Assembly (NCBI GenBank): GCA_947627695.1
Contig: CANQXF010000010.1
Coordinates: 19,192-83,191, forward strand
Reading direction: 5' to 3'
DNA length: 64,000 nt
Source: an uncultured Ruminiclostridium sp.
GTDB taxonomy: Bacteria > Bacillota > Clostridia > Oscillospirales > Ruminococcaceae
Below the pieces are notes generated by a model that was given only the letters and a program-made list of their open reading frames with translations, was not told where the DNA came from and did not search any database. Shown here one piece after another: positions 39,459 to 43,831 of this stretch. The position numbers and the translations under genes were made by a program. Position 1 is the first letter of the stretch. Every line of letters starts with the position of its first letter.

Positions 39459-40334
39459 ATGCGCAGTATGACAGGATTCGGCAGGTCGAGAGCCGTTATC
39501 GGCGGCAAGGAATACCTGCTGGAAATAAAATCGGTGAACAGCCGTTACAGCGAGTTCAACATGAAGCTCCCACGGAGCTGTACATATCTTGAGGAACGTC
39601 TGAAGACCCTTTTAAAAGGCGTTATCAGCAGGGGCAAGGTGGACGTGTGGCTGTCTGTCACCGACGTGGAGGACAGGAGCATCAGCGTCACTGTCAATCT
39701 TCCCGTGGTTAAAAATTATCTTGAGGAAATGCGAAAGTGCGGGGAGGAATTGTCCCTGCCCGACGATCTTCAGCTTTCAAGCATTTTCCGTATGACCGAC
39801 GCTTTCACCATAGTCCGCACCGAGGCGGACGAGGAGGAGATATGGCAGGCGGTGCAGACCGTTGCAAACGCCGCGCTCGCCGAATTTGCCGCTATGCGGG
39901 AAAAGGAGGGCGAAAAGCTGAAAGCCGACCTGCTGGAAAAGGTGGCGAATATCGAAGCTATGGTGGGAGAGATAGAAAAGCTGTCCCCCGAGACCTCCGC
40001 CGCTTACCGCCAGCGCCTTACGGACAAGCTGAACGAGCTGCTGGAGGGTCAGCAGATAGACCAGCAGAGAGTGCTTACCGAGGCGGCTATTTTCGCTGAA
40101 AAGATAGCGGTGGACGAGGAGACCGTCCGCCTGCGCAGTCACTTCAAGCAGTTCAGGGATATGGCGGAAAGCACCGAGCCTATCGGCAGAAAACTGGATT
40201 TCCTCATTCAGGAGTTTAACCGCGAATCCAATACCATAGGCTCAAAGGCTCAGGATCTGCGAATAACAAAATTAGTCATAGATATGAAAAGCGAGATAGA
40301 AAAAATAAGAGAACAAATACAAAACGTAGAATAA
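39459..40334 (+). CDS. yicC: YicC/YloC family endoribonuclease
   Basis: MRSMTGFGR, EIKSVNSRY, ISRGKV, EETVRLRSH, GRKLDFLIQEFNRESNTIGSK, EKIREQIQNVE. Confidence 0.93.
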   Translation: MRSMTGFGRSRAVIGGKEYLLEIKSVNSRYSEFNMKLPRSCTYLEERLKTLLKGVISRGKVDVWLSVTDVEDRSISVTVNLPVVKNYLEEMRKCGEELSLPDDLQLSSIFRMTDAFTIVRTEADEEEIWQAVQTVANAALAEFAAMREKEGEKLKADLLEKVANIEAMVGEIEKLSPETSAAYRQRLTDKLNELLEGQQIDQQRVLTEAAIFAEKIAVDEETVRLRSHFKQFRDMAESTEPIGRKLDFLIQEFNRESNTIGSKAQDLRITKLVIDMKSEIEKIREQIQNVE

Positions 40335-40568
40335 AAAAAGAGCGCTTATAAAAATAAGCGCTTATTTTTTACCAGAATTTTTTCTTGCTGTTGGATAAGC
40401 TCAAAATTCAATAATCCCCCAGTCAAAAGTTTTCTAAGGAGAGTCTGAGAGGATTTCTTTTTCAAAAGAAATCCTTTCAGAGGGCGGCGGAAAAATTCTC
40501 AACTGAAAAATCTGCATTATTATCTTATATTTGCATATAATATTATCAGCATTGTTTATCAATGCTTA

Positions 40569-40632
40569 AGTGATCGTGTTGTGTACGCTTGCGAGGCGCA
40601 CGACCGAAAGGGACTTCTGAGGGAGTCCCTTT
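40569..40632 (+). ncRNA. Putative Abi-associated small RNA, copy 1 (hairpin + terminator)
   Basis: AGTGATCGTGTT-GTGTAC-GCTTGCGAGGCGCA-CGACC then AAAGGGACTTC/GGAGTCCCTTT; matches copy 2. Confidence 0.55.
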
Positions 40633-40732
40633 AAATAATTCAGCACCCTAAACATTTATACATTTTTCTGATAGGTTCACTGCCTCATATGTTGAAAAAA
40701 GTGAAAATATATGCAAATTTTGTTTATTATGC

Positions 40733-40761
40733 TTGACAAATCAAAACACATATGGTATTAT
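40733..40761 (+). promoter_or_regulatory. Sigma-A promoter for sRNA copy 2 / Abi gene
   Basis: TTGACA-17 bp-TATTAT with extended TG; predicted start at the repeat's first bases (~40768). Confidence 0.75.
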
Positions 40762-40767
40762 AATCCC

Positions 40768-40832
40768 AGTGATCGTGTTATGTTGCTTGCGAGGCGCATA
40801 ACCTTGGGGGCTCCTGCGGGAGTCCCCTTTTC
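40768..40832 (+). ncRNA. Putative Abi-associated small RNA, copy 2 (hairpin + terminator)
   Basis: AGTGATCGTGTT-ATGTT-GCTTGCGAGGCGCA-TAACC then GGGGGCTCC/GGAGTCCCC-TTTTT. Confidence 0.6.
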
Positions 40833-40859
40833 ACTATTTTAACAATTCAGAGGAAAAAA

Positions 40860-41801
40860 ATGGACAGAAAAAAATTTCTCACCTATGAACAACAGATAGA
40901 CTTGTTAAAAAACAAAGGGTTAAACATACCTGACCCTGAAAAAGCGATCACTCTTTTAAAAGAGCACAGCTATTTTGATTTGATAAACGGATATAAAAAA
41001 CCGTTTAAGGCGGAAGACGGAAATTACAAGAAAAATATATCCTTTGATGATATTTACTGCCTTTACTGCTTTGATGATGAACTGAGATACGCTTTGATAA
41101 AAAGAATTATGGAGGTGGAGATCCATATCAAATCTCTTCTCTCCTATTCATTCTGCGAGCAATTCGGCGATGAAGAAGCCGGCTATCTCAACGTAAATAA
41201 TTACAATTATTCCATAACCTCAAATCAAAGCGAAATAAACAAGCTGATAAGCATAATTACCGACCTTCAGAATAAGAGCGATTCATTTTTATATATGAAG
41301 CATCAGAAATCAAAATATGGAAATATACCGTTGTGGGTTTTGGTAAAGGTTATGACTTTAGGAAACGCCTCAAAAATGTACAGCTTTCAGAAGCCTGAAA
41401 TACAAACAAAAATAAGTAAGGAATTTAAAGGAATTACAGAACACGGACTGGAAACCTTCCTGGACATACTTACAAAGTTCAGAAATGTATGCGCTCATAA
41501 TGAACGAGTGTTTGACCATAGGTATATAAAGCACGAGATAGTTGATACTGATGTACATTTAAATTTGAATATTCCTAAAAATAAAAACCGGTATACAAAA
41601 GGAAAATCGGATTTGTTTGCCGCTATAATCGCCTTAAAATACTTATTGCCGCAAGATGATTTCGGCTTGCTGATCGATGACGTAAATAAAGCGGTAACAG
41701 AGCTTTTCGACCATACAAACAGCATTCAGAAGCCTCAGTTATATAACTACATGGGATTCCCCGAAAATTGGCTTGAAATCAAGGATTGCAAGGTTGACTA
41801 A
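40860..41801 (+). CDS. Abi family (Abi_2 / AbiF-AbiD-like) HEPN protein
   Basis: 313 aa, AT-rich; KFLTYEQQIDLLKNKGL, SYFDLINGY, LYCFDDELR, EVEIHIKS, IPLWV, HEPN RNVCAH. Confidence 0.88.
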   Translation: MDRKKFLTYEQQIDLLKNKGLNIPDPEKAITLLKEHSYFDLINGYKKPFKAEDGNYKKNISFDDIYCLYCFDDELRYALIKRIMEVEIHIKSLLSYSFCEQFGDEEAGYLNVNNYNYSITSNQSEINKLISIITDLQNKSDSFLYMKHQKSKYGNIPLWVLVKVMTLGNASKMYSFQKPEIQTKISKEFKGITEHGLETFLDILTKFRNVCAHNERVFDHRYIKHEIVDTDVHLNLNIPKNKNRYTKGKSDLFAAIIALKYLLPQDDFGLLIDDVNKAVTELFDHTNSIQKPQLYNYMGFPENWLEIKDCKVD

Positions 41802-41841
41802 TAATAAAAGCAAAAGGAACGTTTGTTCAGAACGCTCCTTT

Positions 41842-43752
41842 TTATTTATCCTCCAACTCGCTCAGCTCTTCCATCGCCTGTTCCCAGCTTTCCATAAGCT
41901 GTGCCTGCAATTCCTCCAGCTCTCCCAGACGCTCAGTATCCTCCATCACCTTCTGATAATCCGCACTGCCGTCCGCAAGGCGGGCGTTTATCTCCGCAGC
42001 TTCCTGCTCCGCCGCCTCTATCTCCGCCTCAATGCGCTTGACCGCAGTTTCCGCCTTGCGGCGGCGGCTTTGAAGCTCCTTCTGCTGCTTGTAGGAATTT
42101 GGCTTTTCCGCCTTGGGAACGGACTTTTCGGGAGCAATTGCCGCCCTGCTCTCTTTCCAGAGGTCGTAGTCGCCGTCGAAAACCTCCATTCCGTCCTTAT
42201 GCAAAAACATCAGCTTGGTGGCAAGAGCGTTTATCATTCCCCTGTCGTGGGAGATTATCAGCATCGTGCCCTGATAGTCCTGCAATGCCTCTGTCAGCCC
42301 CTCTCTCGCCTCAAGGTCAAGGTGGTTGGTGGGCTCGTCAAGAAGCAGGAGGTTGGGTCCCTCCAGCATAATTTTAAGCAGTATTACCTTTGCCGCCTCG
42401 CCGCCTGACAGGGTGTTCACAGGCTTTTCAAGCTCGTCCCCGTACAGTCGGAACAGCGCCAGCGCAGACTGCACCTGCGTTCGGTTCAGCGAGGGAAAAT
42501 CGTCCCACACAAAGTCCATCACCGACTTTTTGCTTGTGAGCCTCAGCTCCTGAAGCTGGTCGAAATATCCTATTTTCAGCCAGTCGGCTATGTCGGAATA
42601 CCCTGCGGTTTCGCCCCGCTTTTCCCCTAAAATAAGCTTCATCAGGGTGGATTTTCCGCAGCCGTTTGCCCCTAACAAAAACACCCGTTCCCCGTGCTTT
42701 ATCTCGAAATCAACGTTCTGAAACAGCGTGCGCTCCCCTATTTTGCAGGAAAGATTTTTCGCCGTGATAACGTCAGTGCCGTGAGCAGTTTTGCAGGGAA
42801 TGGAAAAGTGGATCTTCCTCCTTGGGGGCGGTGGCGGGACAAGCTCCTTTTTCAGTCGCTCTATCTGCTTTTCCTTGGAGCGTATGGTGATGTAGTTATG
42901 CTCCTGATTAAAACGGCGCTGCTGCTCGATTATGCCCTCGATCCGCTTTATCTCCTCGCTTGTCTCTTTATATTTCTTGGTGAGATAGGTCACCCTCTCG
43001 TCATACTGTCGGAGGTATTCGGTGTAGTTCCCCTTGTAGGTATCCAGCGTGCCGTTATCCAGGGCAAAGGTCTTGTTCGTCACCTTGTCCAGAAAATACT
43101 TGTCGTGGGAAATCACGATGTATGCGCCCCTGAACTCTTGCAAAAAGTTTTCCAGCCACTCGCAGGCGTCAATGTCAAGGTGGTTGGTGGGCTCGTCAAG
43201 GAGCAGCAGCTTTGCTCCCGACAACAACAGCTTCACAAGCTGTAGCTTGGAGCGCTCGCCGCCGCTGAGGACGCTGACAGGCTTTGACAAGGTTTCTGCG
43301 GGAAAGCCCATTCCCGCCAGCATACTTTCAGTCCTTGAACGGCAGGTGAGCCCGCCGTCCCGCTGAAATTCCTCGGTAAGGCGCATTTGCTTTTCCAGCA
43401 GCTCGTCATTCACCTCGCCGCTGTCTATTCTGTCGTGGAGCTGTTCTATCTCTCTTTCTTTCTCGATAAGCGGAGCGAAAACGGATAACGCCTCCTCGTA
43501 AACGGTAATGTCGTCGTTTCTCAGAACATGCTGTTCCATAAAGCCCACGGAAAGCCCCGCCTGCTTTGTTATCTGCCCCTGCCAGTCCTCAGGCTCCTGC
43601 CCCGAAAGCATTTTGAAAAGGGTGGTCTTTCCCGCGCCGTTTGCTCCCGCAAGACCTATCTTGTCGTTTTCGTCCACGGAAAAATTTACGTCTGAAAACA
43701 GCACCCGTTCCCCAAAATTTACTGAAATGTCCTTTCCCTGAAGGATTATCAC
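41842..43752 (-). CDS. ABC-F family ATPase
   Basis: Two ABC domains (GANGAGKTT, LSGGE, LLLDEPTNHLD twice), no TM, C-terminal coiled coil; GTG start after GGGGGG. Confidence 0.92.
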   Translation of the reverse strand: MIILQGKDISVNFGERVLFSDVNFSVDENDKIGLAGANGAGKTTLFKMLSGQEPEDWQGQITKQAGLSVGFMEQHVLRNDDITVYEEALSVFAPLIEKEREIEQLHDRIDSGEVNDELLEKQMRLTEEFQRDGGLTCRSRTESMLAGMGFPAETLSKPVSVLSGGERSKLQLVKLLLSGAKLLLLDEPTNHLDIDACEWLENFLQEFRGAYIVISHDKYFLDKVTNKTFALDNGTLDTYKGNYTEYLRQYDERVTYLTKKYKETSEEIKRIEGIIEQQRRFNQEHNYITIRSKEKQIERLKKELVPPPPPRRKIHFSIPCKTAHGTDVITAKNLSCKIGERTLFQNVDFEIKHGERVFLLGANGCGKSTLMKLILGEKRGETAGYSDIADWLKIGYFDQLQELRLTSKKSVMDFVWDDFPSLNRTQVQSALALFRLYGDELEKPVNTLSGGEAAKVILLKIMLEGPNLLLLDEPTNHLDLEAREGLTEALQDYQGTMLIISHDRGMINALATKLMFLHKDGMEVFDGDYDLWKESRAAIAPEKSVPKAEKPNSYKQQKELQSRRRKAETAVKRIEAEIEAAEQEAAEINARLADGSADYQKVMEDTERLGELEELQAQLMESWEQAMEELSELEDK

Positions 43753-43831
43753 AATTTCACCCCCCCTTTGAAAATTCATAAGCGCCCCGTCCGTGCGGGC
43801 AGGGCGCCTTGATTTTATTTTCCCGAACGGC

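Follow-up and report, generated by a model that had tools for sequence, protein, structure and literature searches.

An AbiF/AbiD-type HEPN gene preceded by two copies of a conserved structured RNA in an uncultured Ruminiclostridium

The analysis concerns a predicted abortive-infection gene, together with two copies of a small RNA unit upstream of it, in a 64-kb stretch of DNA from an uncultured Ruminiclostridium sp. (contig CANQXF010000010.1; the whole stretch is hereafter called the window). The gene and the units occupy an islet of ~1.5 kb between a yicC-like gene (39459-40334, + strand) and a convergent ABC-F ATPase gene (41842-43779, - strand). This islet contains one 313-residue open reading frame (ORF; 40860-41801) and, 5′ of it, two related units of ~65 nucleotides (nt). 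The name R1 is given here to this unit, in which a 5′ AGUGAUCGUG tail is followed by a hairpin with the apex CYUGNGAGG (P1) and then by a GC hairpin with a U-run (P2).

Two R1 units ahead of an AbiF/AbiD-type gene

The features of the two units and the gene are listed below in order along the window; the −10 box of the distal unit, the small hairpin behind it and the ribosome-binding site were read from the sequence.

40536-40541, + strand: candidate −10 box of the distal RNA gene, a perfect TATAAT with a poor −35 element
40548-40566, + strand: small hairpin, AGCATTG paired with CAATGCT, immediately 5′ of the distal unit
40569-40632, + strand: distal R1 unit (copy 1), with the AGUGAUCGUG tail, P1 at 40578-40604 and P2 at 40607-40632, then UUU only; covariance model 71.2 bits, E = 6e-19; fold −28.4 kcal/mol
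40733-40761, + strand: sigma-A-type promoter of the proximal unit, TTGACA-17-TATTAT with a TG extension, 11/12 match
40768-40831, + strand: proximal R1 unit (copy 2), with the 5′ tail, P1 at 40777-40802 and terminator P2 at 40806-40827 followed by UUUU; covariance model 75.6 bits, E = 2e-20
40850-40853, + strand: ribosome-binding site GAGG, 6 nt ahead of the ATG at 40860
40860-41801, + strand: AbiF/AbiD-type HEPN gene, 313 residues, predicted ribonuclease (RNase) toxin; RNVCAH is encoded at 41481-41498

The two units (40569-40632 and 40768-40831) start 199 nt apart and are 79% identical over 120 aligned nt, with the spacer of copy 2 being 1 nt shorter than that of copy 1. The longest words common to both, AGTGATCGTGTT and GCTTGCGAGGCGCA, occur exactly twice each in the window, both times here, and the R1 covariance model described below finds these two copies only in the whole 2.7-Mb genome. 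When the folds (P1 plus the GC hairpin) are compared with those of shuffled sequences, z values of −3.3 for copy 1 and −3.55 for copy 2 are obtained. The stem differs between the copies as GTTGTG/CACGAC versus GTTATG/CATAAC: G-C is replaced by A-U at one pair, and U·G by U-A at the next. The terminator of copy 2, a 9-bp stem with TTTT that was flagged by the terminator scan, lies 22 nt ahead of GAGG-N6-ATG. By coordinates, identity and word counts, these results confirm what the original prediction had seen at the locus: two ~64-nt units, 199 nt apart, with words in common. The compensatory change that it had noticed in the stem is real, copy 2 does stand right after a TTGACA-17-TATTAT promoter with a TG, and the terminator of this copy does lie just ahead of the ribosome-binding site of an Abi_2 gene with an intact RNVCAH motif.

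By sequence and predicted structure, the ORF product falls in the AbiF/AbiD group of HEPN proteins and its active-site motif is intact; a role as an RNase toxin is predicted for it. This assignment is made because of its family matches, its likeness to a solved structure in both sequence and fold, and the invariance of its motif residues. In Pfam, the ORF matches Abi_2 (PF07751; E = 6e-47, 160.7 bits, with a gathering cut-off of 25.6), and in PADLOC it matches AbiD over residues 2-307 (E = 6e-67, 224 bits). The Rx4H motif is intact (RNVCAH, residues 208-213), with R208, N209 and H213 being invariant in 35 homologues. A sequence search of solved structures reached one protein, PbAbiF (8vz6, E = 4e-14), whose RNSCCH is aligned with RNVCAH. 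An AlphaFold2 model of the protein (predicted local distance difference test score, pLDDT, of 95.6) has 8vz6_A as its sole significant Foldseek match (E = 3e-12; template modelling scores of 0.75/0.79). The protein is thus of the AbiF-like HEPN type that had been proposed for it.

R1 as a conserved RNA family

The units ahead of the gene represent a genuine structured RNA that is conserved and linked to this Abi_2 gene family. Homologous loci were taken from species-representative genomes (80 loci, 41-57% protein identity), and a profile of the two window units locates one copy just 5′ of the gene in 68 of them. With a covariance model built from 64 aligned units, R1 is found directly 5′ of the gene in 79 of the 80; the remaining locus has only ~90 nt of upstream sequence. 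R1 also lies upstream of the gene in 78 further loci, 53 of 69 from metagenomes and 25 of 65 from viral contigs. It accompanies essentially all homologues with a protein identity of ~38% or more, and none with 30% or less. The order of elements is the same in nearly all loci: a TTGACA-17-TATAAT-like promoter, a few nt, AGTGATCGTG, P1, ACC, P2 with a T-run, the ribosome-binding site and the ATG. Seen over the loci as a whole, the −10 box ends a few nt ahead of the conserved AGUGA.

Of the cells in the alignment of 64 sequences, 93.7% pair, and changes on both sides are observed in 17 of the 19 pairs. None of 500 shuffles reaches the observed values, and sliding the pairing partners by 1-3 columns lowers the paired cells to 39-60%. 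At pair 20-37, which stays intact throughout, 37 sequences have A-U and 27 have G-C. In P1, a lower stem of 7 bp is followed by a bulge of 3-4 nt on the 5′ side, an upper stem of 3 bp (C-G, Y-G, U-A) and a GNG loop, and the invariant positions of R1 (U3, G4, C, G, G, G) are located in the 5′ tail and the P1 apex. Covariance analysis over the homologous loci thereby agrees with the original prediction, which had taken the units for a structured RNA. One further helix was considered and not adopted. In the RNAfold prediction for copy 2, the 5′ AGUGA pairs with a UCACU past the terminator to form a closing helix, which the nearest relatives also have. Copy 1 and most Lachnospiraceae-type units lack this helix, and it lies beyond the covariation test because its 5′ side never varies.

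R1 is not the Rfam abiF motif (RF03085), the one motif by which AbiF RNAs are so far represented in Rfam. No known family was found over the R1 units in an Rfam scan of the window at gathering thresholds or in a scan of 40340-40900 at E ≤ 10. RF03085 itself (gathering score of 37 bits) has no match at E ≤ 10 on 40340-40900 and none in the whole genome. This negative result is meaningful because the same model matches the positive control, the two RCd22 motifs in phage phiC2 (37.6 and 19.5 bits), and the abiF motif, against which the original prediction had suggested a search, is thus not the RNA of this locus. RF03085 has the shape of a hairpin with a large internal loop (CAAAUC) on its 3′ side, whereas R1 has a 5′-side bulge, different conserved letters and an additional conserved 5′ tail. 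In Bacteroidales, the genes of PbAbiF relatives (32-37% protein identity to PbAbiF) are preceded by RF03085, at 36.7 bits, and not by R1; the RNA class therefore differs between AbiF clades, with R1 being that of the present clade. Among 20 distant Abi_2 loci (30% identity or less to the window protein), RF03085 is found in only one. To RF03085, R1 adds a second RNA class that is well supported and belongs to a large branch of the AbiF family in gut Clostridia, and with strong covariation over more than 150 loci it is ready for a family model.

The second upstream copy and the role of R1

The twin-RNA layout is limited to one sub-branch of the AbiF family. All 80 species-genome loci lack a second upstream copy. 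In contrast, the closest homologues of the window protein (59-63% identity; L096, L097/L098, L099 and L237) have both a distal and a proximal unit, 123-180 nt apart from start to start. Together with the window, these loci form one clade in the protein tree (support 97/92), outside of which lie eight neighbouring loci with one copy, and the proteins of the five twin loci have diverged to ~60% identity. The five distal copies, taken alone, are 98% paired; both helices and the 5′ tail are kept, and 4 of 12 pairs are compensatory. Copy 1 of the window retains every invariant position of the R1 family. In L237, a derived P1 apex is common to both copies, which suggests either that the two track one and the same protein or that homogenisation has occurred between them. 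A canonical promoter of its own precedes the distal unit of L097, and −10-like boxes lie ~25 nt 5′ of the distal copies of L096, L099 and L237 as well as that of the window. These last three loci also have short hairpins or palindromes at the place equivalent to 40548-40566. A start from the TATAAT at 40536-40541 would add ~20 nt, including this hairpin, to the 5′ end of copy 1.

A further form of second copy is observed in one tight Abi_2 clade (L070, L075 and L082, at 2467-2551, + strand), in which a diverged R1 with a TTGATT-17-TATAGT promoter lies ~45 nt past the stop codon of the gene. No ORF follows this unit, and the nearly identical locus L081 lacks it. Since this clade has its extra copy downstream, extra antitoxin genes arose more than once.

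R1 also occurs without a toxin gene. In an RNA-first search of 551 Clostridia genomes, 15 strong R1 matches were found outside the window genome: four are followed by an intact Abi_2 gene, two by stumps and nine by no toxin gene, such that 11 of the 15 lack an intact toxin. The stumps lie behind an intact R1 and consist of ~20 codons, a stop and a C-terminal fragment in L247 and of three codons in L253. Several of the nine units without a toxin gene still have a recognisable promoter and terminator. In the toxin-first searches of species-genome, metagenome and viral loci of this clade, a toxin was never found without R1. Such an asymmetry is expected if the toxin cannot do without the RNA but the RNA can do without the toxin, as for a toxin and its antitoxin.

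Systems of this kind have been known since 2025, although R1 is not the catalogued RNA. In that year AbiF systems were shown to be RNA-antitoxin modules, and they have been proposed as Cas13 ancestors (PMC12373285, PMC12737573); the published background on which the original prediction drew is as it had stated. The AbiFCd-RCd22 system of Clostridioides difficile (prophage phi027/phage phiC2; PMC12373285) likewise has an Abi_2/HEPN toxin with an Rx4H motif, the same succession of sigma-A promoter, small structured RNA, intrinsic terminator, ribosome-binding site and toxin gene, and two RNA motif copies per toxin gene. [quoted passage not shown] The two systems differ in that RCd22 combines two RF03085 motifs in one transcript of ~100-130 nt, whereas the window has two separate ~65-nt units, 199 nt apart, of a different RNA motif, at least the proximal one having its own promoter and terminator. 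In addition, the C. difficile gene is inside a phage lysis module, whereas that of the window is between yicC and an ABC-F gene. PbAbiF-AbiFr from a Prevotellaceae bacterium (PDB ID: 8VZ6; Zilberzwige-Tal et al. 2025, reviewed in PMC12737573) has the same fold, an aligned Rx4H motif and a cis non-coding RNA upstream. PbAbiF is a dimer bound by two non-coding RNAs (PMC12737573), which block the HEPN site (PMC12737573, PMC13064643). It is only ~22-25% identical to the window protein, and its relatives use RF03085 and not R1. [quoted passage not shown] In the type III systems ToxIN and AbiQ, too, it is a cis-encoded RNA that neutralises the RNase toxin, the ratio of the two is set by a terminator lying between them and phage infection activates the system (PMC13064643). 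However, the ToxN fold is unrelated to HEPN, and ToxI is made up of ~36-nt repeats that are arrayed head to tail and that the toxin cuts, in contrast to the two dispersed units of the window, which form no tandem array.

By analogy with these systems, R1 is very probably the cognate antitoxin RNA of an AbiF-type toxin, present in the window as two genes. From AbiFCd-RCd22 and PbAbiF-AbiFr we infer toxicity, binding, processing and defence for the present cassette. Most transcripts would stop at the R1 terminator and accumulate as a small RNA, and occasional read-through past the terminator would make the toxin messenger RNA. R1 would bind the HEPN dimer and block its RNase site. The RNA supply would fall on phage infection or when the cassette is lost, leaving free toxin and leading to cell arrest. 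The distal unit, which would have arisen by duplication and been kept in one sub-clade, would raise or buffer the antitoxin supply independently of toxin transcription. The segment from 40340 to 41842 is thus likely to be a horizontally acquired abortive-infection cassette of ~1.5 kb and of AbiF/AbiD-F type, a type III-like toxin-antitoxin system with a second, toxin-independent antitoxin gene.

That the distal unit of the window is a second antitoxin gene without a toxin attached is favoured here with some reservation, as several observations weigh against it. Copy 1 has no strong promoter, and its P2 is followed by just TTT and then by A-rich sequence, and was not flagged by the terminator scan. 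The original prediction had each unit separately terminated; because of this P2, separate termination is secure for copy 2 only. Among the twin loci, the identity of the two copies within a locus ranges from 62% to 92%, with the distal copies being the more diverged, and distal promoters and U-tracts are mostly weaker than proximal ones. The distal copies of L096 and L099 reach 35-48 bits and are 62-67% identical to their partners, a divergence that would also fit slow decay, and that of L099 has lost the conserved apex. The distal copies resemble the proximal copies at least as closely as they resemble each other, so a single old duplication and repeated duplications are indistinguishable. 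As a reservation on the antitoxin reading as a whole, R1 differs in sequence and shape from both RF03085 and the RNA of the solved complex, and its binding mode and inhibition are therefore extrapolated across ~22-25% protein identity. The main alternative, although an unlikely one, is that the distal copy is a relic in decay and without function, left over from a duplication or from a neighbouring cassette since lost, with the proximal unit alone being functional. The weak promoter and the bare UUU past P2 of copy 1 would fit such a relic, as would the strong divergence in L096 and L099, and eight sister loci manage with one copy. A relic is harder to reconcile with a layout that has been kept in five loci of one clade while their proteins diverged to ~60% identity, with distal helices kept through compensatory changes and with the derived apex that the L237 copies have in common. 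Moreover, copy 1 of the window, at 71 bits, nearly equals the proximal unit and keeps every invariant position. The monophyletic layout and the compensatory changes in the distal helices are in agreement with the view that the second copy looks functional.

It is improbable that R1 is a cis-acting leader or attenuator only, in which the terminator throttles abi transcription, no role is played in trans and the distal copy is irrelevant. A promoter-proximal terminator does lie directly ahead of the ribosome-binding site in all loci, and RCd22 also acts in cis via premature termination (PMC12373285). However, the 5′ tail and P1 apex, with their invariant U3, G4, C, G, G and G, are conserved far beyond the needs of a terminator. 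In addition, R1 stands free of any gene to regulate in the distal copies, in the downstream copies of L070, L075 and L082 and in the nine orphans, where a purely cis-acting leader would not be kept. The least probable reading is the incipient repeat array of the original prediction, by which the pair would be a minimal array whose units share one transcript and are excised from it by the HEPN RNase, on the way to CRISPR-like arrays. AbiF is reported to process its own non-coding RNA (PMC12737573). Furthermore, the distal P2 is without a good U-tract in three of the five loci (the window, L096 and L097), and read-through from the distal into the proximal unit is for this reason possible. Against an array, there are never more than two upstream units in ~240 loci, the spacing between units is irregular (123-199 nt) and there is no variable guide-like segment. 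A full promoter of the proximal unit lies between the two units, and in L097 the distal unit has the canonical promoter mentioned above. A ToxI- or CRISPR-like array comprises at least three regularly spaced head-to-tail repeats in one transcript, whereas exactly two units lie here. Very doubtful, likewise, is that the units of the sub-clade are made as one precursor and trimmed by the HEPN RNase at the conserved 5′-AGUGA boundary. If true, such a precursor would be a natural two-repeat 'array' processed by an AbiF enzyme and an intermediate between a single RNA antitoxin and Cas13 repeat arrays. What the original prediction observed at the locus is thus confirmed, and its interpretation is supported in part.

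Extra free-standing copies of R1 occur in several forms: as a second upstream gene in one clade, as a downstream copy in another and as prophage orphans beside packaging genes. They are handles on the setting of antitoxin dose, and they allow a test of mobile-element RNA decoys against the toxin.

The islet and further R1-like units

At 40340 the GC content falls from 52-59% to the 33-37% of the islet, which extends to 41842, and it rises again after 41800, with the flanks being at 50-59% GC. Its edges, and one hairpin within it, are as follows.

40340-40363, no strand assigned: two-way terminator of yicC at the left edge of the AT-rich islet, a 10-bp stem with a T-run on both strands
40442-40481, no strand assigned: 18-bp near-perfect hairpin without a T-run, an inverted pair (94% complementary) between the yicC terminator and the distal unit
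41812-41842, no strand assigned: terminator hairpin with a 12-bp stem at the right edge of the islet, common to the toxin gene and the convergent ABC-F gene

An Rfam scan of the hairpin at 40442-40481 returned spurious matches only, of microRNA- or small nucleolar RNA-like kind. A repeat search at the locus revealed no target-site duplications or terminal repeats flanking the islet. In the same-genus genome G018, which served for an empty-site comparison, a different gene follows yicC and the contig ends soon after. An ORF of 43 residues at 40711-40842 overlaps the promoter and copy 2 and was rejected as spurious.

A second Abi_2 gene is present in the genome of the window (L002, contig C4, 110586-111128). 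It is of a different, GC-rich subfamily and directly follows an 84-residue ORF, whose stop codon its start overlaps; neither R1 nor the RF03085 motif was found upstream of it. Among PLSDB plasmids, no homologue exceeds 30% identity to the window protein, and the best ones, at ~30%, are from Leptotrichia wadei and L. hofstadii. Leptotrichia is a genus known for Cas13a.

Two of the orphan R1 units, which have no Abi_2 gene, lie 0.6-1 kb upstream of phage packaging genes (L252 and L257, both at 1501-1585; genome G344, contig C1, at 1773899 and 1615327). The neighbours of the unit in L252 are a small-terminase-like helix-turn-helix (HTH) protein and a large terminase, and that in L257 is an HNH endonuclease. 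Phages could carry these two units as decoys for AbiF-type toxins. According to a review (PMC13064643), AbiF is inhibited by a hairpin located at the cos site of the lactococcal phage sk1. Further orphan units without a toxin gene are those of L088 (1501-1584, - strand), L246 (1501-1585, + strand), L248, L251 and L254, several of which have a promoter, a terminator or both. The L088 unit begins at the stop codon of a resolvase-like ORF, and that of L246 is followed by a pair of genes for a Cro/C1 HTH protein and an IrrE/M78 peptidase. A scan of viral contigs for orphan units with a strict International Union of Pure and Applied Chemistry (IUPAC) code pattern gave 3 stretches only, as the pattern is too strict.

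In L250 and L255 (1501-1585, - strand), an R1-like unit of the type 'GTGGATG ... CATGCGTG' occurs without an Abi_2 gene and precedes an ORF of ~63 residues and a P-loop protein starting with MKKFTIVAGVNGAGKS. Finally, in at least 15 human-gut metagenome contigs (L145-L160 and L168, for example L147 at 1086-1521; compare L106), the gene behind an intact R1 has an in-frame deletion. In this form, MAKVFF is joined to RNICAH..., and the resulting protein of ~110 residues retains the Rx4H motif and the C-terminal third.

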